Notes: generated from the sequence alone by a model not told the origin. Shown: positions 11,419 through 55,152, counted from the stretch's first letter. The stretch: 64,000 nt of DNA from Negativicutes bacterium (GCA_963665275.2 CAXXIN010000016.1:268395-332394), one strand, 5' to 3'. A program made the numbers and translations.

Positions 11419-11583
11419 GCTGAAAACCTCCTAGAATTAATAATATCTGTATTGGCTTTTTTTGTGCAAAATCCTTGTTTGAATTGACTGCGAACATTTC
11501 AAGGCGCCTGTCTGCAGGCGGAAACCTAAAAAAACGCGGTGCAGCCGGAAAAACAAGTCGTCTTGTGTCGTGCAAAAAGACAC

Positions 11584-11612
11584 TTGCATTATGCCAAAGC
11601 ATACAGTATAAT
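11584..11612 (+). promoter_or_regulatory. SigA promoter of the serine operon
   Basis: TTGCAT-17 nt-TATAAT immediately upstream of the T-box leader. Confidence 0.75.
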
Positions 11613-11631
11613 CAATTATAAATTTATTCAG

Positions 11632-11861
11632 TGCAACGCGATGAACGGGATACTGCTGGTTACAGGATTTCAGAGAGCCGCCGGTTGGTGTGAGGCGGTA
11701 ATCCAGACAGACAGGTCCACCCGTGAGCGGCCGGTGATGAATCAGGACGGGGGCCGCCCGATACAGCGGACAGAGTCGGCCGAACTTCGGCAACTTGGGT
11801 GGCACCGCGGGAGAACCTCTACCTCTCGTCCCTATTATTGGGACGGGAGGTTTTTATTTTT
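11632..11861 (+). ncRNA. T-box riboswitch (Ser, specifier UCC)
   Basis: CAGAGAG and GGTGTGA stem I motifs, TCC specifier at 11716-11718, T-box AACTTGGGTGGCACCGCG at 11792-11809, terminator CCTCTCGTCCC/GGGACGGGAGG plus T run. Confidence 0.93.
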
Positions 11862-11890
11862 ACCGCAAAATATGAATTGGAGTGATGATG

Positions 11891-12988: not shown

Positions 12989-13034
12989 GTTGGCGCATAA
13001 TAAACGAAATGATAATTTTGGAGGGAAAGACAAC

Positions 13035-14627
13035 ATGCCGAAGATACTCGTAAGCGATCCCGTGGCAAAAGCCGGGGTCGAGATTCTACAAAAGGTATAT
13101 CCTGTCGATAGCCGGCAAAAATTGACCCCGGAAGAACTCATCGCCATCATTCCTGAATATGACGCGCTGGTCGTTCGCAGCGAGACCAAGGTGACCAAGG
13201 AAGTCATCGCGGCGGCGAAAAATTTGAAGGTCATCGGCCGGGCCGGCGTCGGTGTGGACAACATCGATGTGGAGGCAGCCACTCAACGCGGAATCATCGT
13301 ACTGAACGCGCCGGAAGGCAACACCATCGCGGCTACCGAACATACGATGGCGATGATGATGGCCCTGGCCCGTAATGTGCCGCAGGCATACGCTTCCTTG
13401 CAAAATGGCCTGTGGGAGCGATCGAAATTCACCGGAGTGGAAGTCCGTGGCAAGACCTTGGGGATTCTCGGTTTGGGAAGGATCGGCAGCGGTGTCGCCA
13501 AGCGGGCGCTGGCGATGGAAATGAAAGTAGTGGTCTATGACCCATTCATCCGGGCGGAACAGGCCGAGGCGCTCGGCGTCGAAATCGCCGATCTGGACGA
13601 GATCTTTGCCCAGGCGGATTTCATCACCCTGCATTTGCCCTTGACCGCCGACACCAAGAAATTGCTCAACAAAACAGCTTTCGCCAAAATGAAAAAAGGC
13701 GTGCGTATTATTAATGTAGCCCGTGGCGGCGTGATCGACGAAGCAGATCTGGCGGCAGCGATCGAGGAGGGGATCGTGGCAGGCGCGGCGATTGATGTAT
13801 TTGAAAAAGAACCGGTCGATCCCAACAACCCGCTGCTGAAATCTCCCAAAGTCATTGCAACCCCTCATCTCGGCGCTTCCACGGCGGAAGCCCAGGTCGG
13901 CGTGGCGGTTGACGTGGCTCATGGAGTGCTGGCCGCCCTGCGGGGTGAACCGGTGACAACGGCTGTCAACATGGCGCCGATTCCGGCTCATGTAATGGAA
14001 GTCATTCGTCCTTTCTTCAACCTGGCGGAGCGGATGGGTTGTCTGTCGGCAACGCTGGCGAACGGCCGCATCCAGTCAATTGATGTGGAATTCGCCGGCA
14101 ACATCAGCGAAGTCGACACCAAAATGCTGACTGTGGCCGTGATCAAAGGTGCGCTCAGCCCCTTCCTACAGGAGTCGGTCAACTACGTGAATGCGCCGGG
14201 CCTCGCCAAGAGCCGCGGCATCAAGATCAAGGAAGTCAAGATCAAGGAGACCGACAATTTTGCCAACCTGCTCAAGGTTCGGGTGGTGACCGACAAGGAT
14301 TACTGCTGCGTGAAAGGCACGTTGTTCGGCAAAGAAGGCCGCATCGTCATGATCAACGATTACCGGGTCGACTTTGTGCCGCAAGGCTGGCTGATGATCG
14401 GACCGCATATCGACCGTCCGGGTATTATCGGCAAGGTCGGCACGTTCCTCGGCGCCAGCGGAATCAATATTGCGAGCATGCAAGTGGGCCGTTCCGAGAA
14501 AGCGGGCAACCAGATGATGGTGCTGTCAGTGGAATCCGCTATTCCGCAGACTGTTTTGGAACAGCTCAAGTCGGTCGACGGCATTCTGGGCGCCACGATG
14601 GTAAATTTCGAATCCCTGCGCATGTGA
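13035..14627 (+). CDS. serA: D-3-phosphoglycerate dehydrogenase (long form with ASB and ACT domains)
   Basis: RAGVGVDNID, GLGRIG, TPHLGAST, C-terminal DRPGIIG ACT; GGAGG RBS before ATG at 13035. Confidence 0.96.
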   Translation: MPKILVSDPVAKAGVEILQKVYPVDSRQKLTPEELIAIIPEYDALVVRSETKVTKEVIAAAKNLKVIGRAGVGVDNIDVEAATQRGIIVLNAPEGNTIAATEHTMAMMMALARNVPQAYASLQNGLWERSKFTGVEVRGKTLGILGLGRIGSGVAKRALAMEMKVVVYDPFIRAEQAEALGVEIADLDEIFAQADFITLHLPLTADTKKLLNKTAFAKMKKGVRIINVARGGVIDEADLAAAIEEGIVAGAAIDVFEKEPVDPNNPLLKSPKVIATPHLGASTAEAQVGVAVDVAHGVLAALRGEPVTTAVNMAPIPAHVMEVIRPFFNLAERMGCLSATLANGRIQSIDVEFAGNISEVDTKMLTVAVIKGALSPFLQESVNYVNAPGLAKSRGIKIKEVKIKETDNFANLLKVRVVTDKDYCCVKGTLFGKEGRIVMINDYRVDFVPQGWLMIGPHIDRPGIIGKVGTFLGASGINIASMQVGRSEKAGNQMMVLSVESAIPQTVLEQLKSVDGILGATMVNFESLRM

Positions 14628-14656
14628 TTTCGCGCAGCACTGAGGAGTAGATAACG

Positions 14657-15889
14657 ATGGCCACAGTCAAGCCTTTTCGGGCCTTGCGCCCAGCTGCGGC
14701 GAACGCAGCCGATTTCACATCCCTCCCTTATGACGTGATGGATGCCGCCGAAGCGCGGGAGATGGTCGCGCAAAAGCCGCAAAATTTTCTGCGGGTAACC
14801 CGGGCGGAAGTCGACCTGCCGCCGGAAACGGACCCCCACTCCCCGGAAGTGTACGGTCAAGCCAGGAAAAAACTGGCGGAATACAGGGCATCCGGAATAA
14901 TGAAACAGGATTCAGGCAACTGCTATTACGTATATCGTCAGCAGATGGGAAAATTCGTTCAGACCGGCATTGGCGCCGTCTGTCAGGTGGCGGAATACGA
15001 AGCGGGCATTGTCCGCAAACACGAGCTGACGCGCCCGGACAAGGAACAGGACCGTGTGGAGCACATTCTGGCAACCGGTGCGCAGACGGGGCCGGTGTTT
15101 CTCGTGTATCGCCGCAACGCGGCAATTGCGGCGCAAGTGGCGTCGGTCATGGCCAAGGAGCCAGCCTGCGATTTCACGACCGAAGACGGAATCCGCCATA
15201 CACTGTGGGTGATGGAGGATCCAGAGTCTATCTTCGCTGTTGAGCAGGCCTTCGCCGGAATGGACAGGCTGTATATCGCCGATGGTCATCATCGTGCTGC
15301 TGCGGCGGCCCGGGTGAGCCGCCTGAGTGATGGAAAAGGCGCAGGCAGTTTCCTGACTGTGCTTTTCCCTGACGATGAGGTGCATATCCTCGACTACAAC
15401 CGGGTGGTTTATGATTGGGGCAATCTGTCGCCGGAAAAATTTCTCACTGAAATTGCGCAGAAATTCATCGTCGAGCCGGCCCGCGCCAAAGGCACCGATA
15501 CGGGTAAGCCCGATCGCCTCCACGGTTTTGGCATGTATCTGGACGGGAGCTGGTATCAGCTGACGACTAAGCCCGGCAGCTTCGATCATAACAACGCCTT
15601 GGCGCGGCTCGACGTGAACATCCTGCAGAACAATCTGCTGGCCCCGGTGCTCGGCATCCAGGATCCGCGGACCGACAACCGGATCGGTTTCGTCGGCGGC
15701 ATCCGCGGGATGGGCGAACTGAAAAAACTTGTCGATTCCGGGCGGGCCGTGGTGGCATTCTCACTGTTCGCGACTTCCATCGAAGATCTGATGTCAGTGG
15801 CGGATGCGAACGAGATCATGCCGCCCAAGTCAACCTGGTTCGAACCCAAGCTGCGTGACGGGCTGCTCGTGCACCTGATTGACGGATGA
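14657..15889 (+). CDS. DUF1015 family protein
   Basis: PYDV, HELT, YIADGHHR, MPPKSTWFEPK; third gene of the serC-serA operon. Confidence 0.92.
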   Translation: MATVKPFRALRPAAANAADFTSLPYDVMDAAEAREMVAQKPQNFLRVTRAEVDLPPETDPHSPEVYGQARKKLAEYRASGIMKQDSGNCYYVYRQQMGKFVQTGIGAVCQVAEYEAGIVRKHELTRPDKEQDRVEHILATGAQTGPVFLVYRRNAAIAAQVASVMAKEPACDFTTEDGIRHTLWVMEDPESIFAVEQAFAGMDRLYIADGHHRAAAAARVSRLSDGKGAGSFLTVLFPDDEVHILDYNRVVYDWGNLSPEKFLTEIAQKFIVEPARAKGTDTGKPDRLHGFGMYLDGSWYQLTTKPGSFDHNNALARLDVNILQNNLLAPVLGIQDPRTDNRIGFVGGIRGMGELKKLVDSGRAVVAFSLFATSIEDLMSVADANEIMPPKSTWFEPKLRDGLLVHLIDG

Positions 15890-15901: not shown

Positions 15902-15952
15902 AGAGGCTCCGGTTTCCGCGCCGAAAATGGCAGGACCGGAGCTTCTTTTTTT
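15902..15952 (+). terminator. Intrinsic terminator of the serine operon
   Basis: AGAGGCTCCGGT...ACCGGAGCTTCT followed by a T run. Confidence 0.75.
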
Positions 15953-16093: not shown

Positions 16094-16663
16094 ATGATGA
16101 AGAAACAGACACGCTGGGCACTCGTATCGGTATTGGCAATTTTGGCGGGAATCATGATGGGCGGGATCGCCGGGGCTGTCGGGCTGTCGGAACCTATTTT
16201 TGAATCACCGGTACTGATCACTTCGATCGGTCAGAGCGCTGACGGGCAATTGGTCAAGGTGCTCGCAGACCGCGTCGGCATCAGCTATCAATATGACTCG
16301 TTGGCGCCGGCATCTGCGGTCGGTGACTACAAGACCGCTATTTTGGTCGTGGGAGGCAGCTCCAAAGGGCTGGGAGCCGCCGGTATCAACCAGGACCAGG
16401 AAGAATCCAGAGCTAAAGCCATTATCGATGCAGCCAGATCTGCCGGAACCAAGATTTTGTTCATGCATGTGGGCGGAGATGCCCGTCGCGGGGATCTCAC
16501 CGACCGTTTCGTCACGATCACCGCACCGGCGGCCCAGTACCTGATCGTGGTCGCCGACGGGAATAAGGACAACTTCATGACCAATGCCGCCGGCGGTGCG
16601 CCGATGGATATGGCGGATACCTTGGGTGATGCGGGAAGGCTGCTGAAAGCCGCATTCAAATAA
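16094..16663 (+). CDS. Exported DUF6305-like protein
   Basis: Signal peptide; LITSIGQSAD, GGSSKGLGAAG, HVGG..RRG and ADGNKD motifs recognised by eye. Confidence 0.75.
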   Translation: MMKKQTRWALVSVLAILAGIMMGGIAGAVGLSEPIFESPVLITSIGQSADGQLVKVLADRVGISYQYDSLAPASAVGDYKTAILVVGGSSKGLGAAGINQDQEESRAKAIIDAARSAGTKILFMHVGGDARRGDLTDRFVTITAPAAQYLIVVADGNKDNFMTNAAGGAPMDMADTLGDAGRLLKAAFK

Positions 16664-16684
16664 GCGAAAAGAGGAAACGGAAGC

Positions 16685-17959
16685 ATGTCACATGAATCCT
16701 GGCTGCTGGGGCTGATGCTGGTGGCGTTTCTTGGGATGGTTTCCGGCCTGAAATGGCCGGTAGGGCTGTCACTGGCTGCAACCAGCGTCGTCGTCGCTGC
16801 CGCCGATGGTCACGGAATCCCCCTGCGCCACCTAGTGGAAGGGATGTTCGGCTATATCGATGTTTCTCTGGTCCTGATCACGGCCATGATCTTCATGAAG
16901 GTCATCGAAAAAAACGGCTTACTCGATGCCTTGACCTGTGATCTCATGTTGCGGTTCGGTCGTTCGCCGGCGATGATGTTGACGATGATGACGATTATCA
17001 TCATGTTCCCCGGAATGATCACCGGTTCCTGCACTTCTTCGGTACTCTCGACCGGTGTGTTGTTAGTGCCGGTGCTGCTGAAGATGAACATGCCGCGGGA
17101 AACAGCCGGAGCGATCGTGGCCATGGCCGCAGTCTACGGCATGATCGCGCCGCCGGTCAATATCGTGGTCATGATCATCGGCGGCGGTATTGATATGCCT
17201 TATATCGGTTTTGACTTGCCGCTTCTCTATATGACCCTGCCGCTGGCGATTTTGACAACGCTTTATCTGGGTTACGGCTATGCCCGCCGCGCTGATATGG
17301 CTTCCGTGGTCGAGGAGTTCGCCTGCCGGGAACGTGCGCCCGGCGGTTTTCTATTGTATCTGCCGCTGCTGACAGTCGTGGTTCTGATGATCGGCCCCAA
17401 GGCGCTGCCGGGCTGGTTCCCTGACCCGCGTCTACCGCTGACATTCGTGATCGGCGCTGGTCTGGCTCTCTTGTCCGGGCGAAAATTCAGCCTGCTCGAA
17501 GCCGCGCAGAATGGGGTGACGGAGATTCTATCGGTGGTCGGCATCCTCATGGGTGTTGGCATGCTGATCCAGATCATGACGCTGACCGGGATTCGCGGCG
17601 ATATCGCCGTGACCAGCCTGAGTCTGCCGCCGTATCTGCTATTGGCTGGAATCGCAATCATGCTGCCTCTGTTCGGCGGGATCTCGGTATTCGGGGCCGC
17701 CAGCGTTCTGGGCGTGCCGTTTATCCTGACAATGCTGAGTCAGAACCTCATCATCACAGCTGCAGGAATGTCGTTGATCGCCGCTATGGGCAGTTTCATG
17801 CCGCCGGTGGCGCTGACCGCCGTTATCGCAGCGCAAGTCGTTGACGAGCCGGATTATCTGAAAATCGTGAAGCCCCTGATCCTTCCGTCCCTGGTCGCTA
17901 TCGGTGTCGGGGTGCTCATGATCAAATACGCCACACAGATAGCGAGGATTGTACTATGA
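16685..17959 (+). CDS. TRAP large-permease (DctM)-like / ion-transporter superfamily membrane protein
   Basis: About 11-12 hydrophobic segments, PGMITGS, GMIAPPVN and FMPPVAL helix-break motifs. Confidence 0.78.
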   Translation: MSHESWLLGLMLVAFLGMVSGLKWPVGLSLAATSVVVAAADGHGIPLRHLVEGMFGYIDVSLVLITAMIFMKVIEKNGLLDALTCDLMLRFGRSPAMMLTMMTIIIMFPGMITGSCTSSVLSTGVLLVPVLLKMNMPRETAGAIVAMAAVYGMIAPPVNIVVMIIGGGIDMPYIGFDLPLLYMTLPLAILTTLYLGYGYARRADMASVVEEFACRERAPGGFLLYLPLLTVVVLMIGPKALPGWFPDPRLPLTFVIGAGLALLSGRKFSLLEAAQNGVTEILSVVGILMGVGMLIQIMTLTGIRGDIAVTSLSLPPYLLLAGIAIMLPLFGGISVFGAASVLGVPFILTMLSQNLIITAAGMSLIAAMGSFMPPVALTAVIAAQVVDEPDYLKIVKPLILPSLVAIGVGVLMIKYATQIARIVL

Positions 17960-17972
17960 GAGGTGCGTCGTC

Positions 17973-18119
17973 ATGATGACCATCGTGTATCGGTTGATTT
18001 TGGTGGCGGCGGTCGTATTGATCGTCCGCGGCCTCTTCCAGGAAAAAGAGCTTAAAATGCAAATCAATGCCGCCTGGGTTCTGATACCGTTTATTTTACG
18101 CGCATTGATGCTGGCGTGA
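17973..18119 (+). CDS. 48-aa two-helix membrane protein (below the ORF-track cutoff)
   Basis: GAGG RBS, MMTIVYRLILVAAVVLIVRGLFQEKELKMQINAAWVLIPFILRALMLA*, fills the gap in a tight operon. Confidence 0.75.
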   Translation: MMTIVYRLILVAAVVLIVRGLFQEKELKMQINAAWVLIPFILRALMLA

Positions 18120-18138
18120 GGGAGGGGCAGGTAGGACT

Positions 18139-19254
18139 ATGAAAGCAAGTAAGCTCACGGCAGCAGTTCTTTTGGCGCTCACGATCGGCATCGTCGCACT
18201 GGTGACGCCGGATTTTCGGCGGATGCATGAGGAAGAGCCGATCCGCAAAGGCGCCGGCGTAACTACAGTAAAACAGCTGAGTGATTATTTTGAAGGGTTG
18301 AAGGGGACCGCCGGCGATACGCAGGTTTTTGTACTCGATAGCGGCATTCCCGGCGGGACAGCGCTGTTGCTCGGTGGCACGCACCCCAATGAACCGTCGG
18401 GATTTTTGAGCGCAGTGCTGCTGATTGAAAATGCCAAGCCGACCAAGGGTCGCATGATCATCATCCCCCGCGCGAACAATAGTGGATTTTCCCACACTGA
18501 TTACACCGAGGGGGCTCCTCAGCGATTTCATCTGAAAGCCGCTTCCGGTGAGCGCTGGTTCCGGTTCGGATCCCGGGCCACCAATCCCACCGACCAATGG
18601 CCGGACCCTGATATATATGTCCATGCAGCCTCGGGCCAGAAGCTCTCCGGCTCCGAGACGCGCAACCTGAACCGGGCTTATCCGGGAAGAGCAGATGGCA
18701 CGTTGACCGAGAAAGTGGCTTTCGGCATTGTTCAGTTGATTCGCCAGGAGAAGGTCGCCATGGCGATCGACCTGCACGAAGCCTCGCCGGAATATCCGGT
18801 TATCAATGCGATCGTAGCCCATGACCGGGCCATGGATATCGCGGCGGAAGTGACGATCGGCCTGCAGATGGACGGCCTCAAGATCGGCCTGGAACCTTCG
18901 CCGAAAAGCCTGCGCGGACTGTCGCACCGCGAATGGGGCGATGCCACCGACACGTTGGCCATCCTGATGGAAACGGCCAACCCGGCGCAAGGGCGACTGC
19001 GTGGCGCTACGAACGAGCAGCTGGTGCTGACAGGCAAAGATCCGATGTATGAGCGGGCGGCAAAGCTGAACCGGCTGTTTGTTCCTTACGATGCGAAGGG
19101 GCAGCCGATTGAGTTGCGGGTGGCCCGACATGTTACAGCTGTGAACGAATTTCTGATGGTGCTGTCCAAGAAGAAACCACAGCAGGCCGTCGTTCTGGCC
19201 AAAGTTCCTTCCTATAGCGACATGGTGAAAAAAGGCATCGGACCCTACTTCTAG
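18139..19254 (+). CDS. Exported succinylglutamate desuccinylase/aspartoacylase-family (M14) zinc deacylase
   Basis: N-terminal anchor/signal, GGTHPNE (HxxE), NLNR, DLHE. Confidence 0.85.
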   Translation: MKASKLTAAVLLALTIGIVALVTPDFRRMHEEEPIRKGAGVTTVKQLSDYFEGLKGTAGDTQVFVLDSGIPGGTALLLGGTHPNEPSGFLSAVLLIENAKPTKGRMIIIPRANNSGFSHTDYTEGAPQRFHLKAASGERWFRFGSRATNPTDQWPDPDIYVHAASGQKLSGSETRNLNRAYPGRADGTLTEKVAFGIVQLIRQEKVAMAIDLHEASPEYPVINAIVAHDRAMDIAAEVTIGLQMDGLKIGLEPSPKSLRGLSHREWGDATDTLAILMETANPAQGRLRGATNEQLVLTGKDPMYERAAKLNRLFVPYDAKGQPIELRVARHVTAVNEFLMVLSKKKPQQAVVLAKVPSYSDMVKKGIGPYF

Positions 19255-19303
19255 CGGCTACCTATGAAACGTTGCAACAAAAAATTAATAGGGGAGGCAA
19301 AAA

Positions 19304-21043
19304 GTGATGCGTAAACTGAGATCCTGGCTTTCTTTGTCCCTGGTAGTGCTGTTCATGTTGTCGGTCGTCGCGACAGCGGTGGCCGGACCCTACGATCCAC
19401 CCGAAAAAAGGGATGTGATCGCCAAGAATGGGGTGGTGGCGGCCGCGCATCCCCTGGCTGCCCAAGCGGGGCTGGAGGTGTTGAAGAAAGGCGGCAACGC
19501 CTTCGACGCAGCCATTGCGACTTCGTTCATGCTGAACGTGGTTGAACCCAATGCTTCCGGCATGGGCGGCGGCGGATTCGCCGTCATCTATACAGCTAAG
19601 GACAAGAAAACCTATTTCGTTGATTACCGAGAAATGGCGCCGGCCAAAGCCCGGCCCGATTTTTATCCCGTCGATGAAAATAACAAGGTAAAGGACATGG
19701 CGACGACCGTCGGCTACTATGCGAGCGGCGTTCCCGGTCAGTTGCGCGGCGTGGAGATGCTGCACGGCAAATTTGCCACGATGCCCTGGGCGGACCTGGT
19801 CGCTCCAGCCATCAAGCAGTCGGAAGCCGGACTGCCGGTGACCAAAAACCTGAATGGCATTATCATGGACAACGTGGATCGTTTCGAGAAATTTTCCCCT
19901 TCATTGGCGACTTTCAAAGAAATCTTCTATAAAGACGGATTGCCGGTGCAGGAAGGCGACGTCGTCAAGAACGTCCTGCTGACCTCTATGCTGAAAAAAG
20001 TGGCGCAGGGCGGAGCCGATGTTTTCTATAAAGGTGAAATCGCTGACAAAATCGACGCCTTCTACGCGAAAAACGCCGACGGCTGGATCACCAAAGCCGA
20101 TCTCGCCAATTATAAAGCCAAGCTGCGTGAACCGGTCAAAGGAACCTACCGGGGTTATACGCTGATCACCTCGCCGCCTCCGTCTTCCGGCGGACTGACG
20201 GTCGTGAACATGCTCAACATTATGGAAGGGTTCGACGTGGCGAAGATGGGCCGCAGTTCGACCGATTTTCTCCATACGTTCATCGAATCGCAAAAACTGG
20301 CTTTTTCGGACCGGAATAAATTCATGGCGGATTCGGACTTCGTGAACGTTCCGATGTTCGGTATGGTGGACAAAGCCTATGCCGCTGAACGCCGGAAAAT
20401 GATCGACATGGAAAAAGCCAATAATGCAGTGAAGTTCGGTGATCCGGCGAAGTATTCCGCCGGCAGCACCACCTCGTTCTCCGTCATTGACAAGGACGGC
20501 AACATGATCACCATGACTCAGACCATCAATGATTTCTTCGGCTCCGGCGTCATCGTGGACGGAACGGGAATCCTGATGAACGATGAGATGGATGATTTCG
20601 TTGCCAACAATCCGACGCACAACAATGCACCTGCTCCCGGCAAGCGTCCGCTCAGCAGCATAACTCCGATGATCGTGCTCAAAGATGGAAAACCCTTCAT
20701 GACGCTTGGGACGCCTGGCGGGCCCCGCATCATCACAACGGTGGCAGGTATTGTGATGAATGTCATTGACTTCAAGATGGACCTGCAAAGCGCCATCCTG
20801 GACCCACGATCCCATAATCCAAACGCGCCTGTCGTGCAATTGGAAAAACCGGTGGTCGAATATAAGTTTGCCGACCACATGGATTCCTTCGTGCGGGAAC
20901 TTGAGGCGCGAGGGCATAAAGTGAACCTGCGGCCCGAACGTTCCGCCTTCTTCGGCGGCGCCCAGGGTATCATGATTCTGCCGGATGGCAGCCTCCACGG
21001 CGCAGCCGATAATCGGCGCCTCGGCCAGGCCTTCGGGTACTGA
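19304..21043 (+). CDS. ggt: Gamma-glutamyltransferase, exported
   Basis: GGNAFDAA, SGMGGG, DYRE, PPPSSGG, STTSFSV (catalytic Thr), KRPLSS, GTPGG. Confidence 0.95.
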   Translation: MMRKLRSWLSLSLVVLFMLSVVATAVAGPYDPPEKRDVIAKNGVVAAAHPLAAQAGLEVLKKGGNAFDAAIATSFMLNVVEPNASGMGGGGFAVIYTAKDKKTYFVDYREMAPAKARPDFYPVDENNKVKDMATTVGYYASGVPGQLRGVEMLHGKFATMPWADLVAPAIKQSEAGLPVTKNLNGIIMDNVDRFEKFSPSLATFKEIFYKDGLPVQEGDVVKNVLLTSMLKKVAQGGADVFYKGEIADKIDAFYAKNADGWITKADLANYKAKLREPVKGTYRGYTLITSPPPSSGGLTVVNMLNIMEGFDVAKMGRSSTDFLHTFIESQKLAFSDRNKFMADSDFVNVPMFGMVDKAYAAERRKMIDMEKANNAVKFGDPAKYSAGSTTSFSVIDKDGNMITMTQTINDFFGSGVIVDGTGILMNDEMDDFVANNPTHNNAPAPGKRPLSSITPMIVLKDGKPFMTLGTPGGPRIITTVAGIVMNVIDFKMDLQSAILDPRSHNPNAPVVQLEKPVVEYKFADHMDSFVRELEARGHKVNLRPERSAFFGGAQGIMILPDGSLHGAADNRRLGQAFGY

Positions 21044-21196
21044 ACCGGATGCTGCCAATACTCGGACTTTTGGCTGCCTGTGTGCTGATGGCGGTCGGAA
21101 ACGTCCTGGAAAACGATACGATTTTCTTGTTATCCAGTATCATGCTCCTTGTATTTGGGGTGATGTATTTCAAACGATAATTGGAATGTGACTCAT

Positions 21197-21237
21197 TCAG
21201 AAGAAGGACAGGGGCCCTCGCCCTGTCCTTCTTCTGA
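21197..21237. terminator. 17-bp perfect-stem hairpin downstream of ggt
   Basis: TCAGAAGAAGGACAGGG-7 nt-CCCTGTCCTTCTTCTGA; weak U-tail. Confidence 0.6.
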
Positions 21238-21365
21238 CAGTACTATTATTTGGATATGGGTCTTCAAAAGATAAAAGCGGGAAAATGGTGTTGTTTGCAG
21301 GAAAACTCCATTCAGCCGCAAAATATATATATGTTAGACAATATCAATTTGGAGGCGGTAATCAC

Positions 21366-22220
21366 ATGGCAATCAAAAAAGTACTCGTAATCGGGGCCGG
21401 TCAGATGGGCAGCGGTATCGCCCAGGTCATGGCGCAAGGCGGCAGGGATGTCGTCATCAGGGATATCAAGGACGAATTCGTCCAGAGAGGTATCGCCGGA
21501 ATCAATAAAAACCTGACCAAGTCCGTCGAAAAAGGCAAGCTCTCCGCTGAAGAAAAAGAAGCGATCATGAAGCGGATCTGCGGCGTCGTGGACCTTGATG
21601 CAGCGGCCTGCAACGTGGACCTAGTGGTCGAAGCCGCCGTGGAAAACCTGGTGCTGAAAAAAGAAATCTTCCAGACCCTGGACAGCTTGTGTCCGGCGCA
21701 TACGATCCTGGCCTCGAACACGTCTTCCCTACCGATTACGGTGCTGGGCTCGCTGACGAAACGTCCGGCTCAGGTCATCGGCATGCATTTCTTCAATCCG
21801 GCCCCGGTGATGAAGCTGGTGGAAGTGATCAGCGGCCTGGCTACATCGACGGAAACCTTTGAAGCCGTCAAAGAGCTGGCCGTAGGGCTGGGCAAATCCC
21901 CCGTCAACGTATCGGATGCGCCGGGATTCATCGGCAACCGGATCATGATCCCGATGATCAACGAAGCGATCTTCACGCTGGCCGAAGGAGTAGGCAGCGC
22001 GGCGGACATCGACACGGTGGCCAAGCTGGGCTTCAACCATCCGATGGGACCGCTGGAACTGTCGGATTTGATCGGCAACGACACGATCCTCTACATCATG
22101 GAAGTGCTGTATGACGGATATGGCGATACCAAATACCGTCCCTGTCCGCTGCTGAAAAAGATGGTGCAGGCCGGATATCTGGGACGCAAGAGCGGCAAGG
22201 GCTTCTACGACTACAAATAA
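21366..22220 (+). CDS. hbd: 3-hydroxybutyryl-CoA dehydrogenase
   Basis: [42 protein letters not shown]. Confidence 0.93.
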
Positions 22221-22258
22221 GCGGATAACGCAATAAACGGGAAAGGGTGTATGTGAAA

Positions 22259-23041
22259 ATGAAAACTTTCAAAAATCTACTGTTCGAAAACCAGGAAGGT
22301 ATTGGCGTCCTGACAATGAATCGACCGTCGGCTCTGAACTCTCTGAACCAGGAAACGATCAACGAGCTCGCCGAAGCATTCGGCGAAATCGGCAAGGACG
22401 CGGCTGTCAAAGTCCTGATCATCACCGGTGCGGAGAAAGCCTTTATTGCCGGCGCGGATATTAAAGAAATGCTGCCGATGTCGGCCGCTCAGGCGCAGGC
22501 TTGGTGCCTGACTGCCCAGAGCGTCTTCAATATGCTGGAAAACCTGCCTCAGCCTGTGATTGCAGCGGTCAATGGGTTCGCTCTCGGCGGTGGTTGTGAG
22601 ATGGCGATGGCCTGTGACATCCGGATCGCTTCCGAAAAAGCCAAATTCGGACAACCGGAAGTATCCTTGGGCATTATCCCGGGTTTTGCCGGCACGCAGC
22701 GTTTGCCGCGCCTGGTTGGCAAAGGGATCGCGAAGGAATTGATTTACACGGGCGATATGATCGACGCGCAGGAAGCGCTGCGGATCGGCCTCGTGAACAA
22801 GGTGACGACACCGGATGAACTGTTGCCGAGCGCCAAAGCTATGGCGCAGAAGATCATGACGCGTGGAATGTTCGCGGTGCAGATGGCGAAATCCGCCATT
22901 CATAACGGACTGAACACTGATCTTGCGACAGGCTCTGCTTATGAAGCGGCCCTCTTTGGGGTAACCTGCGCGACCGAAGACAAAAAAGAAGGAATGACTG
23001 CGTTCGTAGAAAAACGGAAACCAGTATTCCCCGGGAAATAA
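22259..23041 (+). CDS. crt: Crotonase (short-chain enoyl-CoA hydratase)
   Basis: NRP..LN, AGADI, GFALGGGCE, GQPE...G..PGF.GTQRL. Confidence 0.92.
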   Translation: MKTFKNLLFENQEGIGVLTMNRPSALNSLNQETINELAEAFGEIGKDAAVKVLIITGAEKAFIAGADIKEMLPMSAAQAQAWCLTAQSVFNMLENLPQPVIAAVNGFALGGGCEMAMACDIRIASEKAKFGQPEVSLGIIPGFAGTQRLPRLVGKGIAKELIYTGDMIDAQEALRIGLVNKVTTPDELLPSAKAMAQKIMTRGMFAVQMAKSAIHNGLNTDLATGSAYEAALFGVTCATEDKKEGMTAFVEKRKPVFPGK

Positions 23042-23058
23042 AAACCAAAAGGATTGGA

Positions 23059-23095
23059 TGCCTCTGTATGCCTGATCATACAGGGGCATTTTTTA
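23059..23095 (+). terminator. Intrinsic terminator after crt
   Basis: ATGCCTCTGTATG...CATACAGGGGCAT followed by Ts. Confidence 0.65.
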
Positions 23096-23114
23096 CCAAG
23101 GGAGGGAGAAGTCA

Positions 23115-23669
23115 GTGACAAGATTTGCGCCGCTCAAGAAAAAAGGCAGTGTTCTGGTCGTGGTCGATGTTCAGGAGAAATTGCTGCCAGCTATTCATGA
23201 ATTTGCGTCTGTGCTTGAACGATCGGTGAAGATGGTCAAGGTGGCTCAAATGTTGGAAGTGCCGATTCTGTTCACCCAACAGTATACAAAAGGTCTGGGA
23301 GGCACCCATTCGGCTTTGACCAGCTTGTTTCCAGAGTTTACCTTCGTTGAAAAAACCTCATTCAACTGTTTTGGCGAGCCGAGATTCGCGGAACGGTTGG
23401 CTGAATTGAACGCAAAAACCTTGGTCATTGTCGGGACCGAGGCCCATATTTGCGTTTGCCAGACTGCTTTGGATGCGCTGCAACGGGGTTTCGACGTTCA
23501 CGTTGTGGCGGATGCAGTGGGATCCCGTACGACGCAGAACAAAGAAATCGGCCTGGGGAGAATCCGTCAGGCTGGCGGAATCATCACAGGAACGGAGCTC
23601 ACCATTTATGAATGGATCGAACGAGCCGACTCCGAGGCTTTCCGCAAGATGCTTCCTCTATTGAAGTAA
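23115..23669 (+). CDS. Isochorismatase-family (YcaC-like) cysteine hydrolase
   Basis: VVDVQEKL, EKTSF, GTEAHICV. Confidence 0.88.
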   Translation: MTRFAPLKKKGSVLVVVDVQEKLLPAIHEFASVLERSVKMVKVAQMLEVPILFTQQYTKGLGGTHSALTSLFPEFTFVEKTSFNCFGEPRFAERLAELNAKTLVIVGTEAHICVCQTALDALQRGFDVHVVADAVGSRTTQNKEIGLGRIRQAGGIITGTELTIYEWIERADSEAFRKMLPLLK

Positions 23670-23713
23670 GGATTCCCTATCCGGTTAATCAATTTGATGA
23701 GGAGGTCAGGAAG

Positions 23714-24280
23714 ATGGAACTCCTACAAGCAATCAAAGAACGCCGGACCATTCGGAAATTCAAGTCCGACCCAGTTCCCAAGGAACTACTCGAAAAACTC
23801 ATCAAAAATTCCATGTGGGCGCCTTCGGCCATGAACATGCAACCCTGGAAGTTTTACGTTTTTACTGAGGATGCCAGACAGGGGCTGATTTCGGTTGCGG
23901 AAGGATGTCTCGATCAGCTCGATTCCAGGATGGATAAGATGTTCGACGGGCCGATGAAGAACATGATCCGCGGCTACTTCAAAGATTTCGGCGGCGCTCC
24001 GGCCATTGTGGTTGTGGTATCTTCCCTGCCGGCAGAAGCAGTGTACCAAAAGGCCAGTCTGTATGCGGCCTGCGCAGCGATGCAGAATTTATTGCTGCTG
24101 GCGCACGAAGCTGGACTTGGAACCTGCTGGATGATGGGCCCTCTATGGGTAGAGGCCGATATCATCAACTACCTGAACTGCCCGGGGTGGGGGCTTGTCG
24201 GTATCACGCCGATCGGCTGGCCGGAACAGACGCCTCCTGCTCCTCCGCGCAAAGAAGAAAACATCGAATGGCGTGATTAA
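23714..24280 (+). CDS. Nitroreductase family protein
   Basis: RRTIRKF, APSAMNMQPW, QNLLLLAHEAGLGTCW. Confidence 0.92.
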   Translation: MELLQAIKERRTIRKFKSDPVPKELLEKLIKNSMWAPSAMNMQPWKFYVFTEDARQGLISVAEGCLDQLDSRMDKMFDGPMKNMIRGYFKDFGGAPAIVVVVSSLPAEAVYQKASLYAACAAMQNLLLLAHEAGLGTCWMMGPLWVEADIINYLNCPGWGLVGITPIGWPEQTPPAPPRKEENIEWRD

Positions 24281-24289
24281 GAGATGAAA

Positions 24290-24333
24290 AAACGGGCCTG
24301 CAATGTGCTGATGCACGTTGCAGGCCCATTTTT
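24290..24333 (+). terminator. Intrinsic terminator after the nitroreductase gene
   Basis: GGGCCTGCAA...TTGCAGGCCC followed by ATTTTT. Confidence 0.7.
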
Positions 24334-24406
24334 ATCTTTTCAATAGCAGGGGCAGGGGAAAAAAGGCGTAGGCGCGAAATAAATAGTGCAGTAGCGGAGG
24401 TGCATT

Positions 24407-25138
24407 ATGCGCATTATCGTTTTAGTGATTGCGTTTTTTTTATCGATCCTGCCGATTGGCGATGCGGCGGCTGAGCGCTTCACGTTGCAGGCCGGAACGC
24501 AATGGGAGACCTATGGCTGTATCGCGGATTCTGGACAGGCTGGCCCGAACGTGTTGATCCTCGGCGGTGTTCACGGCAACGAACCTGCCGGGGCGGCAGC
24601 GGCGGAGAAGGTGTGCGGTTTTTCTCCGATCCTCGGCAAAATCGTGGTCGTTCCGCGGGTGAATCCGCTCGGCCTGAAGGAACAAGTGCGTTATTTGCCG
24701 GAAATTGGCGATATGAACCGGGTATATCCACCCCAGGGCGAGAATACGCCGGCGGAACAAATGGGTATGGAAATCATACGCCTCATGCAGCGCCAGAACA
24801 TCGCCATGCTGATTGATCTGCATGAAGCGCGGACCTTTCACCGTCTCGATGCGACTTCACTGGGGCAGACGCTCCTGTTCGCCAACAATGGCGTGAGTGC
24901 GGAACTGGCAATGGACACGGTGGATACCGTCAATCGCACAATCAGTGAAGAGGTCCGCAAATTTGCGCTAGTGGGACATCCGATCCGAAGCAGTTCCGCC
25001 TGGTATGCAGGGAAATATCTGGGGATTGCGGCGTTCACGGTGGAAACGAGCTCCCAGCAGCCTCTGGAGGACCGAGTGGAAGAGCATCTGGCCATCGTAA
25101 GGGAACTGCTCACAGAAGGCGGTTGGCTGCGGCGATGA
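24407..25138 (+). CDS. Second exported M14/succinylglutamate desuccinylase-aspartoacylase family protein
   Basis: Signal peptide, GGVHGNE, DMNR, DLHE, TVET; stop overlaps the pgsB start (ATGA). Confidence 0.85.
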   Translation: MRIIVLVIAFFLSILPIGDAAAERFTLQAGTQWETYGCIADSGQAGPNVLILGGVHGNEPAGAAAAEKVCGFSPILGKIVVVPRVNPLGLKEQVRYLPEIGDMNRVYPPQGENTPAEQMGMEIIRLMQRQNIAMLIDLHEARTFHRLDATSLGQTLLFANNGVSAELAMDTVDTVNRTISEEVRKFALVGHPIRSSSAWYAGKYLGIAAFTVETSSQQPLEDRVEEHLAIVRELLTEGGWLRR

Positions 25139-26307
25139 TTTCGGCGCTTGGAACGGCGCGGGCCGGGTTCCTGTTTTGCGTTGCCTTGTGGCTGTTATGG
25201 CTCGCCTGGCTGGCTTGGGAAAAAATGAGGCATCAGCGGAACTTGACCGCTTTACGGTTGCGGATCCATGTCAATGGCACCCGCGGCAAGTCAAGTGTGA
25301 CCCGACTGATTGCAGCCGGCCTGCGCGCCGGCGGGATTCGGACCCTGGCCAAGGTGACAGGCACCGAAGCGAAATTCATCGATCCTGATGGAACGGAGCG
25401 GGCGGTGAAGCGGCGCGGACCGGCTAACATCCGTGAGTATCTGGGGACTGCCGACGTAGCTGTTGCCTGCGGCGCCGAGGCGCTGGTCTGCGAATGCATG
25501 GCGCTGCAACCGGAACTGCAGACCTTCTGCGAACAGCGGTTGATGCGTTCCCATATCGGCGTTATCACAAACGTCCGCCATGATCATGAAGAAATCATGG
25601 GCCGGGATCTGCCTGAAATCGCCGCGACGCTCGGCAGGACGACGCCGGAGTGCGGCAGACTGGTCGCGACGGCAGAGACTGCAGCCTTGCTGCGAGTTGC
25701 CGGCGTACTGACAGGCAGCGAGGCGTTGCTGACGCTGGCGGATTCGAAGGGGGCGCCTGCGGCGCAACTGGACGGGTTTCCATTCCCTGTGGAACCGGAG
25801 AATGTGGCGCTGGCGCTGGCGGTCTGTGAACTGGCCGGTGTGGAGCGGGAGCAGGCATTGGCAGGGATGCGGGCTTCGCAGGCGGATGGGGGAAACCTGA
25901 CGGTTAGCGAGTATCGGGTGGACGACCGCATTTTTCGGTTCGTCGATGCCCTGGCCGCCAACGATCCGGATTCGACGCGCATCCTTTGGACCCGATATGT
26001 GGGTGATGGAGCGGCGGCGGGAGTATTGTTGCATGCCAGGTGCGACCGCCGGCTACGGACCCGCAAGTTGTGCGAACTACTGACGGAGCTGCATACAGGG
26101 CCGTATTACCTGACAGGAGATACGGCCTTCGCGTCGCACTGCCTGAGGAGCCATGGAGTTTCAGCCGAGCGCCTGCTTCTGCCCAGGGCGGCCAGACTGG
26201 ACGAGGTTCTGCGGATGGCGGCAGAGGTGATGCATCGCCAGGGGAGTGGCGCGCAGGCGGCACAGACCCTATTCGCGGCAGGGAACAGGAAAGGATTCGT
26301 GGTGTAG
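25135..26307 (+). CDS. pgsB: Poly-gamma-glutamate synthase (CapB/PgsB, Mur-ligase fold)
   Basis: N-terminal TM, HVNGTRGKSSVTRLIAAGL, ECMALQP, ITNVRHDH, ANDPDST. Confidence 0.92.
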   Translation: MISALGTARAGFLFCVALWLLWLAWLAWEKMRHQRNLTALRLRIHVNGTRGKSSVTRLIAAGLRAGGIRTLAKVTGTEAKFIDPDGTERAVKRRGPANIREYLGTADVAVACGAEALVCECMALQPELQTFCEQRLMRSHIGVITNVRHDHEEIMGRDLPEIAATLGRTTPECGRLVATAETAALLRVAGVLTGSEALLTLADSKGAPAAQLDGFPFPVEPENVALALAVCELAGVEREQALAGMRASQADGGNLTVSEYRVDDRIFRFVDALAANDPDSTRILWTRYVGDGAAAGVLLHARCDRRLRTRKLCELLTELHTGPYYLTGDTAFASHCLRSHGVSAERLLLPRAARLDEVLRMAAEVMHRQGSGAQAAQTLFAAGNRKGFVV

Positions 26308-26314
26308 CAAGCGC

Positions 26315-26749
26315 ATGCATTTTTTATTTATCGGGATTCTGGTCTCTTTGTTCATTACGGAAGCAACTGGATTTTCACCCGGCGGCGTGGTCGTAGCCGG
26401 TTATCTGGCGTTGTTCGCCCTGCAGCCGATGTGGCTGGGAGGCACGCTCGCGGTGGCGCTGGCGACCTGGGGATTGGTTCGGTTGCTGGGCCGCGGCCTG
26501 TTGCTCTATGGCCGTCGTCTTTTTGCCATGCATCTGCTCACAGGGATGTTGCTGGGACAGGCAGTGATGCTGGCGGGGCGGGGGATGACCCACTGGGACT
26601 GGGGAGTATCGGTCATCGGCTGGATTGTGCCGGGGCTGCTTTCACGCGATTTTGATCGTCAGGGTTTTCTGCCGACGGTTGCAACTACTGCACTGGCCGT
26701 CGTCGTTATAAGGTTGATATCCCTACTGGGGGATGGATTGTTATGGTAA
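26315..26749 (+). CDS. pgsC: Poly-gamma-glutamate biosynthesis membrane protein (CapC/PgsC)
   Basis: TGFSPGGVVVAGY, LYGRRLF, IGWIVPGL, RQG. Confidence 0.92.
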   Translation: MHFLFIGILVSLFITEATGFSPGGVVVAGYLALFALQPMWLGGTLAVALATWGLVRLLGRGLLLYGRRLFAMHLLTGMLLGQAVMLAGRGMTHWDWGVSVIGWIVPGLLSRDFDRQGFLPTVATTALAVVVIRLISLLGDGLLW

Positions 26750-27735
26750 GGCGACTGTCCCTTCTGTTGGCAGCGAACTTGGCCTTTTTCATTGTGTGTC
26801 TGATGTTTCTGCAGACTTCGCCGACGGCGCATCAGATGGAAAAACAGGCGGCAGTTGCTCTGGCGGTTCGGGCGCAGGCCGTTTTGGGTTCCCGGATCTC
26901 CGGGCCGGAATTCACGTTGATCACGACGACGCTGGCGCCGCATGAGGCCAAGCTCCTGTCGCGGCATCCCGATTTTTCGGCGGTGGTGGTGGGTTGGCTG
27001 GCTGAAGCAGGGGTTGGAAAAGGCAACCGGGTGGCGGTGAATCTGTCCGGTTCTTTTCCGGCGCTGAACATTGCCGTACTGGCTGCGATTCAGGCTGTAG
27101 GCGCGGAACCGGTCATTACCAGTTCCGTGGGAGCTTCCACATGGGGTGCGACTGATCCGGACTTCACCTGGCTCGACATGGAACGGCAACTGAGAGAGTC
27201 CGCACTCTGGCTGTGGAAGTCTGCTGCAGCCTCACCGGGCGGAGTCGGTGACCGAGGCGGTGGACTGGCCCCGGAAGGGAAGGCGCTGGCAATTGCTGCC
27301 ATAGGGCGCAATGAAGTGCCGCTCATGGAGTCTGCCGATCTGGCGGCAGGCGTTAAGCGGCGGCTTGAGTTGTACCGAGGATCATCGGGAGAATTGCCGC
27401 CGGTACTGGTGAATGTGGGCGGAAGCCATGTCGTTTTCGGCGAGTCCGGTCACCGTTCGCCGTTGCCGCAGGGACTGAATGTCGGCTATCACCCGCTGCT
27501 CGCCGCGCATGACGGATTGGCCGCAGCTTTTCTGCAATCGAACCGGCCTGTCATCCATATCCTCAATATCGCCCAATTGGCCGCCCAATACGGAATCCGG
27601 CCGGATACGCCGCCAGGGAAGAGCGGCGCGTTCCTGTCCCGACAGCTGCCATTGTGGCTGCGGATAGCGGTGGGAGTGTGGGTGATCGGCTGTTTAATGA
27701 TCCTGTGGCGTGGGCGGCCGCAAAAAGAACTTTGA
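26743..27735 (+). CDS. pgsW: Poly-gamma-glutamate system protein PgsW
   Basis: GPEFTLITTT, VAVNLSGSFPALNIA, SSVGASTWGA.DP.FTW.DME, VNVGG; N- and C-terminal TM; follows pgsC. Confidence 0.85.
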   Translation: MVRRLSLLLAANLAFFIVCLMFLQTSPTAHQMEKQAAVALAVRAQAVLGSRISGPEFTLITTTLAPHEAKLLSRHPDFSAVVVGWLAEAGVGKGNRVAVNLSGSFPALNIAVLAAIQAVGAEPVITSSVGASTWGATDPDFTWLDMERQLRESALWLWKSAAASPGGVGDRGGGLAPEGKALAIAAIGRNEVPLMESADLAAGVKRRLELYRGSSGELPPVLVNVGGSHVVFGESGHRSPLPQGLNVGYHPLLAAHDGLAAAFLQSNRPVIHILNIAQLAAQYGIRPDTPPGKSGAFLSRQLPLWLRIAVGVWVIGCLMILWRGRPQKEL

Positions 27736-27834
27736 GCTGCGACAGGAATTTGGGAATGGAAGTCAAATAGTATATACAAGAATTGTTAGCGCGAACAGAA
27801 GCGTTTGCAGAACCAGGGGAAATGGAGGGGTTGT

Positions 27835-28359
27835 ATGAAAAAGTGGTGGGGCGCCTTGTGTTTGGTCGCAGTCCTGCTGGTGGGAACCGGCTTGGCCCAG
27901 GCCCAAGCGGAACCTGTTCGCCGTGTTGAAATAGTCCGCAAACCGGGGATCGATTTTCGGCAGTTCAAATCGGTGGGGACGGATGTTGCCGTCAGTTTTC
28001 AGCCTTCCTCCAGCTGGGCGATCGACAAGGGAGATCCATACCTGGAACAACGGATTCAGGAATTGTCGCTGAAAGCGGCTAAAAATCAAGGCTGGGTGCC
28101 TATTGATAATGTGAGCGCCGATGTGAAGCTGTCGGTGAAAATATTGGACTGGGGACGCCTGCGGAACTCTCAGGGTGATAATCTGATGGAGTATGTTGCC
28201 TTTGAGCTCAAAGTATATACGAATGCCACAGAGGGTCCGGTTTTTCGCGGAACAGGCAAATACAGCCAGAACGCTCCGACGGAACCCAATCTGGAATTAG
28301 CTGGCAATGCTTATGAATCGATGCTGGAGGATCTCCTGGCGGCACTGCGCACGAATTGA
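27835..28359 (+). CDS. Exported hypothetical protein
   Basis: GGAGG RBS, signal peptide ending AQA; no family recognised. Confidence 0.7.
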   Translation: MKKWWGALCLVAVLLVGTGLAQAQAEPVRRVEIVRKPGIDFRQFKSVGTDVAVSFQPSSSWAIDKGDPYLEQRIQELSLKAAKNQGWVPIDNVSADVKLSVKILDWGRLRNSQGDNLMEYVAFELKVYTNATEGPVFRGTGKYSQNAPTEPNLELAGNAYESMLEDLLAALRTN

Positions 28360-55148: not shown

Positions 55149-55152
55149 CTTT

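Follow-up and report, generated by a model that had tools for sequence, protein, structure and literature searches.

A candidate PgsA-less poly-gamma-glutamate synthesis locus with a linked, probable turnover-and-uptake module in a Negativicutes genome

The window analysed here, a 64,000-nucleotide stretch of a Negativicutes bacterium genome (GCA_963665275.2 CAXXIN010000016.1:268395-332394), contains between positions 16,094 and 27,735 two groups of genes that may together serve the synthesis, extracytoplasmic turnover and re-uptake of poly-gamma-glutamate (PGA). Operon or module A comprises the genes for a DUF6305 protein, a DctM-like permease, a 48-aa peptide, an M14-type hydrolase (M14A) and GGT, and operon or module B those for a second M14 protein (M14B), PgsB, PgsC and a TIGR04332 protein, called PgsW below. 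An earlier note, made from the sequence alone, had listed these nine genes and interpreted them as two halves of one cycle, in which B would build and trim a gamma-glutamyl polymer and A would depolymerise and re-import it. By open reading frame (ORF) reading and family scans, all nine genes were recovered on the plus strand where the note had placed them, and the spacing of about 3.4 kb claimed between A and B corresponds to a gap of 3364 bp between the GGT and M14B genes. Gene calls were scored against Pfam and NCBIfam models (Table 1).

Within each operon the genes are separated by 13-49 bases or overlap, the end of the M14B gene running into the start of pgsB. The ATG of the DUF6305 gene is preceded by a GGGGA-type ribosome-binding site, and the TTG taken as the start of pgsB has an in-frame ATG four codons downstream as an alternative. 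The hairpin and T-run behind the DUF1015 gene are the likely upstream limit of operon A; a consensus terminator scan at this position gave its sole match on the minus strand (15926-15907). On account of this hairpin and the terminator-like hairpin ahead of the M14B gene, A and B were taken as separate transcription units in this genome. The four genes between them lie outside the module, and are not found at that position in four contiguous nine-gene loci from other genomes (L011-L014). In a crude hydropathy scan, a single N-terminal hydrophobic segment was seen in each of DUF6305, M14A, GGT and M14B, and likewise an N-terminal one in PgsB, whereas PgsC had four such segments and PgsW one near either terminus.

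Table 1. Features of the locus; family scores are given in bits, followed by the curated cut-off in brackets.
Feature	Position	Strand	Evidence
Likely terminator, GC-rich hairpin and T-run	15905..15952	+	read from sequence, after DUF1015 gene
DUF6305 protein with signal peptide, 189 aa	16094..16663	+	PF19823 151.4 (25), profile positions 1-154 of 154
DctM-like permease (ion-transporter superfamily), 424 aa	16685..17959	+	PF06808 39.1 (23.8)
48-aa peptide, two transmembrane segments	17973..18119	+	ORF read; no Pfam/NCBIfam family
M14A, AstE/AspA-type, 371 aa	18139..19254	+	AstE_AspA_cat 30.3 (25)
Exported gamma-glutamyltransferase (GGT)	19304..21043	+	TIGR00066 499.6 (357.85)
hbd, crt, isochorismatase-like and nitroreductase genes	21285..24280	+	Pfam/NCBIfam scans
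Terminator-like hairpin, 15-bp stem, 10 GC pairs, T-run	24294..24327	+	terminator scan
M14B, AstE/AspA/Csd4-like, 243 aa	24407..25138	+	AstE_AspA_cat 62.4 (25); Peptidase_M99 34.3
PgsB, ligase subunit of the synthase	25123..26307	+	TIGR04012 295.9 (222.7)
PgsC, membrane subunit	~26315..26749	+	PF14102 101.7 (27); TIGR04011 95.3, slightly below cut-off (96.45)
TIGR04332 "poly-gamma-glutamate system protein" (PgsW)	26743..27735	+	TIGR04332 238.6 (100); no Pfam family
orf184, exported, no family	27805..28359	+	Pfam/NCBIfam scans, hydropathy

In operon B the TIGR04332 gene directly follows pgsB and pgsC and occupies the position that PgsA has in Bacillus. No match to PGA_cap (PgsA, PF09587) was found among 20 window proteins or at either Pgs locus of the genome; the sole genomic match over the cut-off is unlinked, on another contig (C15), and this family also matches seven of 14 control genomes, none of which matches TIGR04332. 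Operon B is in this respect PgsA-less and unlike Bacillus, in line with the earlier note. The structural model of the TIGR04332 protein (predicted local distance difference test, pLDDT, 91.1) consists of a Rossmann-like domain between two terminal helices, both flanked by positive residues on the predicted cytoplasmic side, and we infer that the domain is extracytoplasmic. Foldseek and VIA-align searches returned no specific structural relative (TM scores below 0.21; best Z 8.0, with a root-mean-square deviation, rmsd, of 2.7 over 114 residues), an ESM Atlas search returned its own family only, and a PDB sequence search with PgsB gave no match. In the literature nothing relevant was found on PgsW or TIGR04332, the name PgsW was found in no paper, and for PGA genes outside Bacillus only Bacillus work and reviews were retrieved. 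The product of B is suggested by analogy: in Fusobacterium nucleatum SB042 the one PgsB that exceeds the cut-off is located inside a cluster of the present type (L068), and the available passages of PMC3815933 and PMC4497714 cite Candela 2009 for PGA production by F. nucleatum, which supports a gamma-glutamyl polymer as the product.

A second M14B-PgsB-PgsC-PgsW set is present in the same genome, at about 9306-12767 of a 17.7-kb contig (C11, locus L122). The PgsW of this set is broken into two frames, and several genes around it (for a methyl-accepting chemotaxis protein, an aldo-keto reductase and Pyr_redox_2) are truncated; the damage could be due to decay, an assembly error or a strain-mixed contig.

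Conservation of the arrangement was followed by scanning an alignment of DUF6305 relatives over one genome per species, which gave 396 relatives, of which the best 80 loci, chosen by likeness to the query, were kept. Six-frame ORFs from their flanks (up to 10 kb) were searched with the window proteins, and 33 loci had at least 8 kb on both sides. The permease was encoded near DUF6305 in 77 of the 80 loci (33 of the 33 with full flanks), the 48-aa peptide in 67 (32), M14A in 70 (33), GGT in 71 (32) and M14B in 36 (16), and PgsB, PgsC and PgsW were in turn found in 44, 45 and 44 loci, with 26 of the 33 full-flank loci for each. One or more Pgs genes lay inside the 10-kb flank at 45 of the 80 loci, the order PgsB-PgsC-TIGR04332 recurred in 44, and L011-L014 were nine-gene arrays without interruption. 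According to sequence-record and tree labels the carriers span nine phyla: Bacillota (including Negativicutes, Oscillospiraceae, Fusibacter and C. tetanomorphum), Fusobacteriota, Spirochaetota, Pseudomonadota, Acidobacteriota, Actinomycetota, Thermodesulfobacteriota, Bacteroidota and Atribacterota. Recurrence of the same gene set beside DUF6305 in nine phyla places the arrangement far beyond chance.

The trees of DUF6305 and PgsW agreed only in part, with the Desulfovibrionaceae and Propionivibrio rows on long branches and differently placed, and their congruence lends weak support to a link between A and B. Phyla are intermixed in both trees: each places Varibaculum (Actinomycetota) next to a Tissierellia row as its sister, and in the DUF6305 tree a group of Propionivibrio and Holophagaceae stands among spirochaete rows. 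This intermixing suggests that the module has spread horizontally.

Co-occurrence extended beyond the flanks. TIGR04332 was present over the cut-off elsewhere in 29 of the 35 genomes without Pgs genes in the flank (16/16 and 13/19), and in total 74 of the 80 DUF6305 carriers had TIGR04332 or adjacent Pgs genes, plus one with a fragment. In an even sample of 301 genomes from the phylum of the window, DUF6305 was found in 37, TIGR04332 over the cut-off in 20 and PgsB over the cut-off in 26 genomes. DUF6305 and PgsW occurred together in 18 genomes, PgsW alone in two and DUF6305 alone in 19, and PgsW was present in 18/18 carriers of the transporter-type DUF6305 subfamily. PgsB was accompanied by PgsW in 19 genomes and stood without it in seven; the seven PgsW-less copies had the highest PgsB scores (426-576 bits) and were for that reason read as Bacillus-type. 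Just one of these seven genomes had DUF6305, in a copy of the kinase-linked type described below. A functional link between A and B, as the earlier note had assumed, is thus supported by Pgs genes in 26 of the 33 full-flank loci, by TIGR04332 elsewhere in the genome where they were not in the flank, and by DUF6305 in 18 of the 20 own-phylum genomes with PgsW.

The link is not symmetrical. In Spirochaetota, the phylum of a Rectinema locus, TIGR04332 was found over the cut-off in 15 of 151 sampled genomes and DUF6305 in Rectinema only, which speaks against a strict coupling of A and B. The Pgs clusters of the other 14 genomes share the synthase core of operon B and differ from the window in being without M14B and module A within about 8 kb; the five loci fetched consisted of bare PgsB-PgsC-PgsW with unrelated neighbours. 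Since bare PgsBCW stands alone while A occurs essentially only with that core, the dependency is one-sided, of A on B. This suggests that A acts on the product of B, as would be expected if that product were the substrate of A, and it argues against two views of A, as a scavenger of general kind and as a requirement for synthesis. The description of A and B as two halves of one cycle therefore has to be corrected, A being accessory and not obligate, and the interpretation of the earlier note is on the whole partly supported.

Among the enzymes of module A, GGT is a full-length protein of T03 type, the small subunit of which begins at the catalytic Thr389, where the alignments start. It matched E. 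coli GGT with 394 bits, Bacillus GGT with 367 bits and CapD (3g9k) with 165 bits; assignment as a CapD-like transpeptidase was rejected on these scores. Its alignment with E. coli GGT has a 9-residue gap at the Tyr-containing loop of the latter, which we take to be the lid loop, and is free of gaps there with B. licheniformis GGT. The short form was found in 75 of the 77 cluster-linked GGT ORFs, with 57-60 residues from the catalytic Thr to the PLSS motif (60 in the window), the other two being without the motif; from the 9-residue gap we infer a distance of about 69 residues in E. coli GGT. In the parts available of PMC9073855 and PMC4497714, respectively, B. subtilis GGT is described as a PGA hydrolase without the lid loop, a loop that selects donors by size, and the same B. 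subtilis enzyme as taking units off the N-terminal side.

The two M14 proteins retain a full carboxypeptidase site. In M14A (65% mean column identity over 23 sequences) residues H82, E85, H213, R175, N176, N178, R179 and E278 are invariant, and in M14B H56, E59, H139, R95, N104, R105 and E213 are invariant in 13 sequences; by comparison with M14 enzymes these correspond to the HxxE...H ligands of the zinc, the Asn-Arg clamp for the carboxylate and the catalytic Glu. The best PDB sequence matches of M14A were 2qj8, DoeB (6twm) and AstE/AspA entries, and M14B matched 2qj8 and H. pylori Csd4 (4wcm). AstE, AspA and DoeB are M14-clan deacylases and Csd4 is a gamma-D-Glu carboxypeptidase. The proteins of the window share the active-site residues with this group, which also gives their best sequence matches, and differ from it in having export signals and in travelling with a PGA synthase; M14A in addition forms a distinct, highly conserved subfamily across phyla. 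M14A is by its sequence a probable exported or membrane-anchored, zinc carboxypeptidase-like hydrolase. Its characterised relatives cut N-succinyl-Glu and N-acetyl-Asp, and N-succinyl-glutamate, the substrate of AstE, differs from gamma-Glu-Glu solely by the alpha-amino group of the acyl part. By this analogy, the natural reading of M14A would be a C-terminal exo-gamma-glutamyl hydrolase. No Gamma_PGA_hydro match (PghP-type, which we take to be PF05908) was present for either M14 protein among the Pfam matches listed at E up to 0.01, and a PghP-like assignment of M14B gained no support among them. The expectation that the M14 and GGT enzymes are suited to gamma-glutamyl substrates is consistent with the retained M14 sites, the PDB relatives and the lid-loop-less GGT.

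The permease of module A is a distant relative of DctM. The PF06808 match spans nearly its full length, and the scores against TIGR00786 (21.7, cut-off 268.45) and TIGR02123 (27.6, cut-off 320.65) are far lower than these cut-offs. It contains ten hydrophobic segments by the crude scan and has a mean column identity of 62% in its alignment; a PDB sequence search gave no match. The 48-aa peptide contains two hydrophobic segments, with Y6, A34, P39 and R43 invariant in 21 aligned copies chosen at a length of 47-49 aa, and is proposed as a putative small subunit of the permease. As in tripartite ATP-independent periplasmic (TRAP) transporters of the DctP-DctQ-DctM type, a large permease related to DctM is encoded together with a small partner in the membrane and a soluble one that is exported. 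Besides the distance of the permease from DctM, the partners differ: DctQ has four helices, whereas the peptide here has two in 48 aa and matches no Pfam or NCBIfam family, and in place of a two-lobed DctP or TAXI binding protein the adjacent exported protein matches PF19823 only and is modelled as a single alpha/beta domain of 150 aa. No paper joining pgsB with a TRAP transporter was found in the literature.

The AlphaFold model of DUF6305 (pLDDT 88.5) is a single flavodoxin/Rossmann-like domain, in which loops that follow strands carry the invariant motifs TSxGQSAD, GGSSKGLGAAG and HxGGxxRRG. Foldseek and VIA-align searches gave generic matches only (best TM score 0.45; best Z 9.1, rmsd 3.3 over 140 residues). 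As the structural matches were of generic Rossmann or flavodoxin kind, no function was drawn from the folds of DUF6305 or TIGR04332; homology between the two is not claimed either, profile comparison being weak (probability 16%, E 0.0015). No paper mentioning DUF6305 was found.

More is suggested by the company that DUF6305 keeps. All 19 DUF6305-only genomes of the own-phylum sample have one copy each, of a different (sister) subfamily, and neither permease, M14 nor GGT genes were near it in any of the 19 fetched loci (L101-L119). In 18 of these DUF6305 is the first gene, followed on the same strand by genes for a histidine kinase and a response regulator, and in 15 Opp/Dpp-type ATP-binding cassette (ABC) transporter genes lie within 6 kb. 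In the four kinases examined the N-terminal part is made up of 4-6 transmembrane helices by prediction and lacks a large outer domain. In a tree of 100 DUF6305 sequences the 81 transporter-linked copies fall on one side of a branch (UFBoot/SH-aLRT 94/93), although some clustering is expected, as the 80 loci were picked by likeness to the query. The phylogenetic profiling that the earlier note had called for thus ties DUF6305 to pgsBCW in the transporter-linked subfamily, and not in the family as a whole, of which the sister subfamily occurs in PgsW-less genomes.

Fusions of DUF6305 to other proteins were also found. It is joined to the permease in the same order in P0132 (572 aa) and P0134 (668 aa), and in P0127 (987 aa) a signal peptide is followed by three near-identical DUF6305 domains on acidic linkers and a whole permease; the junctions fit a permease with its N-terminus outside. 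Elsewhere it is fused to an SBP_bac_1 binding protein (P0133), occurs as two or three tandem domains (P0121, P0122, P0126 and P0128), and is joined to a Mur-ligase fragment in what may be an artefact (P0131). The tandem domains of P0127, on flexible linkers ahead of the permease, recall GlnPQ and OpuA, which are ABC importers with fused or tandem substrate-binding domains, but the partner here is a secondary transporter and the fusions are rare. A lipobox-like Cys followed by a long linker was matched in 37 of 42 DUF6305 copies from monoderms, 4 of 13 from Negativicutes and 8 of 20 from other diderm phyla, by a crude regular expression run on stop-to-stop ORFs, with some matches upstream of the true start. 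In monoderms a lipobox Cys with a linker is the pattern of solute-binding proteins. Because of the permease fusions and of the DUF6305-histidine kinase-response regulator units, we read DUF6305 as a putative extracytoplasmic ligand-binding accessory of polytopic membrane proteins.

Taken together, the locus is best read as PgsA-less PGA synthesis with a dedicated extracytoplasmic turnover-and-uptake module, to which we give a probability of roughly 55%. What the analysis observed is which genes are present and in what synteny, their one-sided co-occurrence, catalytic residues that are kept, a GGT without the lid loop and the fusions; the biochemical roles are all proposed. PgsB, PgsC and the doubly membrane-anchored TIGR04332 protein would polymerise glutamate and extrude a gamma-glutamyl polymer, and M14B, translationally coupled to pgsB, would trim or release chains at the synthase. 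Outside the cell, the lid-loop-less GGT would remove gamma-glutamyl units from the amino end of the polymer and M14A the carboxy-terminal glutamate. DUF6305, apparently a tethered lipoprotein in monoderms, would bind the released glutamate or gamma-Glu-Glu and pass it to a minimal TRAP-like importer made up of the DctM-like permease and the 48-aa hairpin. The net effect may be that glutamate is laid up outside the cell, as a store or coat from which it can be reclaimed; the organism has hydroxyglutarate-pathway genes as well. More tentatively, as a proposal that we rate below even odds, DUF6305 would be a small extracytoplasmic receptor for solutes, built of a single domain and belonging to a class so far unrecognised. 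It would serve the minimal TRAP-like importer and, in the sister subfamily, sensor kinases that have a membrane-embedded sensing part and are encoded close to peptide ABC transporters. On this view the nine genes would provide a bank of glutamate outside the cell, charged by ATP and open to reclaiming, and would have spread among anaerobes of different phyla, with gut Oscillospiraceae and Fusobacterium among them.

Several observations weigh against the turnover-and-uptake reading. TIGR04332 was not found by whole-genome search in 5 of the 80 DUF6305 carriers, all five of them fragmented metagenome-assembled genomes of unknown completeness. Two of the 20 PgsW genomes in the own-phylum sample (G262 and G315) are without DUF6305, and the permease orthologue was also absent from both assemblies when searched for. 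These look like assembly cuts: in G262 the contig start falls inside M14A, followed by M14B-PgsB-PgsC-PgsW, with a PgsW near-identical to that of a full-array locus (L030), and in G315 PgsW is on a 7-kb contig. In Rectinema a second set (L139, genome G004, contig C108) of M14A-like, GGT, DUF6305, M14-like, PgsB, PgsC and PgsW genes stands beside the synthase without a permease, on top of a separate full module A (L044); by this set DUF6305 is linked with the enzymes no less than with transport. Each of the three permease fusions comes from a single contig; they are rare and could be gene-calling artefacts. DUF6305 is moreover a 150-aa single domain and not two-lobed, and SGNH esterases (Z 8.0-8.5) are among its generic fold matches, which leaves room for an enzymatic role. 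The substrate and the inward direction of transport are both presumed, the direction counting as a point on this side, and the roles of the genes are predicted.

Among the rival explanations, one is that module A might build and fix the polymer, with GGT as a CapD-like transpeptidase attaching PGA to the envelope, the M14 enzymes setting chain length and the transporter supplying glutamate for PgsB. Translational coupling of M14B to pgsB and the contiguity of transporter and synthase genes in L011-L014 would suit such a role, an importer of glutamate is of use both for supply and for salvage, and CapD, a member of the GGT family, anchors PGA in B. anthracis according to the available part of PMC4497714. 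We nevertheless regard this as unlikely: the GGT is far nearer to the hydrolytic E. coli and Bacillus enzymes than to CapD, the 14 genomes with bare PgsBCW indicate that A is unneeded for synthesis as such, and F. nucleatum PGA is described as produced, without anchoring being mentioned in the cited passages. Still less likely is that DUF6305 itself is an enzyme, an SGNH-like esterase or amidase or another hydrolase, cutting or modifying the polymer while the permease works without a binding protein. Residues S48, S89, S90, K91, H125, R131 and R132 are invariant and are placed on loops along the sheet's C-terminal edge, the SGNH proteins PatB (Z 8.5) and CJ0610C (Z 8.0) are among the tied top structural matches, and the copy in L139 accompanies GGT and M14 genes in the absence of a permease; yet no specific match rises above generic Rossmann folds, DUF6305 is found joined to the permease or to an ABC-type binding protein and in tandem arrays of two or three domains, which is at odds with it, and in 18 of 19 loci the sister subfamily opens a kinase-regulator unit, the usual place of a ligand-binding accessory.

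Module A could alternatively scavenge foreign gamma-glutamyl compounds, such as glutathione, the PGA of other organisms or folyl-polyglutamates, and owe its place near pgsBCW solely to a common regulation of glutamate metabolism. GGT and M14 deacylases do accept many gamma-glutamyl or N-acyl-Glu compounds, the window also has Opp, M20 peptidases and hydroxyglutarate-pathway genes, and A and B are unlinked in some genomes. A scavenger would however be expected also without the synthase, and TIGR04332, in just 20 of the 301 genomes, accompanies 74 of 80 carriers and every transporter-type carrier of the phylum sample; this explanation is given slightly less weight again. A very improbable variant concerns the product of B, which might be a short gamma-glutamyl oligomer or a gamma-glutamyl decoration of the envelope, kept in circulation within the periplasm or the wall, where it would act as buffer, osmolyte or signal. 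Chain handling may indeed differ, as TIGR04332, without a known structural relative, replaces PgsA, short chains would be expected with three exo-type hydrolases next to the synthase, and PgsC is slightly below its equivalog cut-off. PgsB, by contrast, passes its equivalog cut-off, and F. nucleatum, with its sole PgsB locus of this cluster type, is named as a PGA producer in the passages cited above.

The turnover-and-uptake reading has partial counterparts among the known PGA systems. PgdS of B. subtilis is an NlpC/P60 enzyme, and its gene presumably adjoins the pgs operon. With the B. subtilis system (pgsBCAE, pgdS and ggt) the locus shares PgsB and PgsC homologues and a further hydrolase encoded beside the synthase genes. 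It differs in having TIGR04332 and no PgsA/PGA_cap gene, M14 AstE/AspA-like adjacent hydrolases, and a dedicated transporter with DUF6305; B. subtilis, one of the control genomes, gave no DUF6305 or TIGR04332 match. A secreted, lid-loop-less GGT, which in B. subtilis degrades PGA from the amino end, is common to both, as far as the available parts of PMC4497714 and PMC9073855 go, and ggt, linked here, is unlinked in Bacillus in the former. The capBCADE operon of B. anthracis likewise combines a PgsB/PgsC-type synthase with a GGT-family gene in the same neighbourhood, but the GGT of the window is canonical and not CapD-like, and there is no CapA. CapE of that operon is a small membrane peptide.

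To our knowledge, PGA is known almost solely from Bacillus and a few others. The distribution of the module suggests PGA-type synthesis with built-in turnover in many anaerobes, among them, going by record titles, gut Oscillospiraceae, Fusobacterium, Negativicutes, Treponema relatives, Holophagaceae and Propionivibrio. PGA synthesis combined with degradation is already known as a kind, of which the locus would be a variant that possibly includes a new kind of solute receptor, and no description of the nine-gene module was found in the literature. The locus yields hypotheses of function for four unassigned families, namely DUF6305, TIGR04332 and two subfamilies of M14. It also points to receptors of a new type, which secondary transporters and sensor kinases would use, and offers candidate exo-acting PGA hydrolases of practical use in tailoring PGA.

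The wider window contains hydroxyglutarate-pathway genes (HgdC, HgdA/B, CoA-transferase and acyl-CoA dehydrogenase) at 34502-40866, with a sigma-54 activator at 32963-34405, and hbd and crt at 21285-23041 between operons A and B. The hydroxyglutarate-pathway genes together with hbd and crt suggest that the organism ferments glutamate. Directly upstream of module A lie serC, serA and DUF1015 (11882-15889), as also in three close relatives (L006, L008 and L009), DUF1015 being thus kept beside serine-synthesis genes. Downstream of module B the order PgsB-PgsC-PgsW-orf184-TrxR-like is preserved in two close relatives (L098 and L099), the only loci in which orf184 trails PgsW; it had no match in L005-L084 and is by its sequence distribution apparently lineage-specific. 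Two long ORFs without a Pfam family at E up to 1e-6 are located at 40958-42169 (403 aa) and 62943-63998 (351 aa). At 53719-56669 three gene fragments stand in a row, ABC_tran (178 aa), a penicillin-binding protein transpeptidase (202 aa) and the N-terminal part of Ddl (209 aa), which may be frameshifts or pseudogenes.

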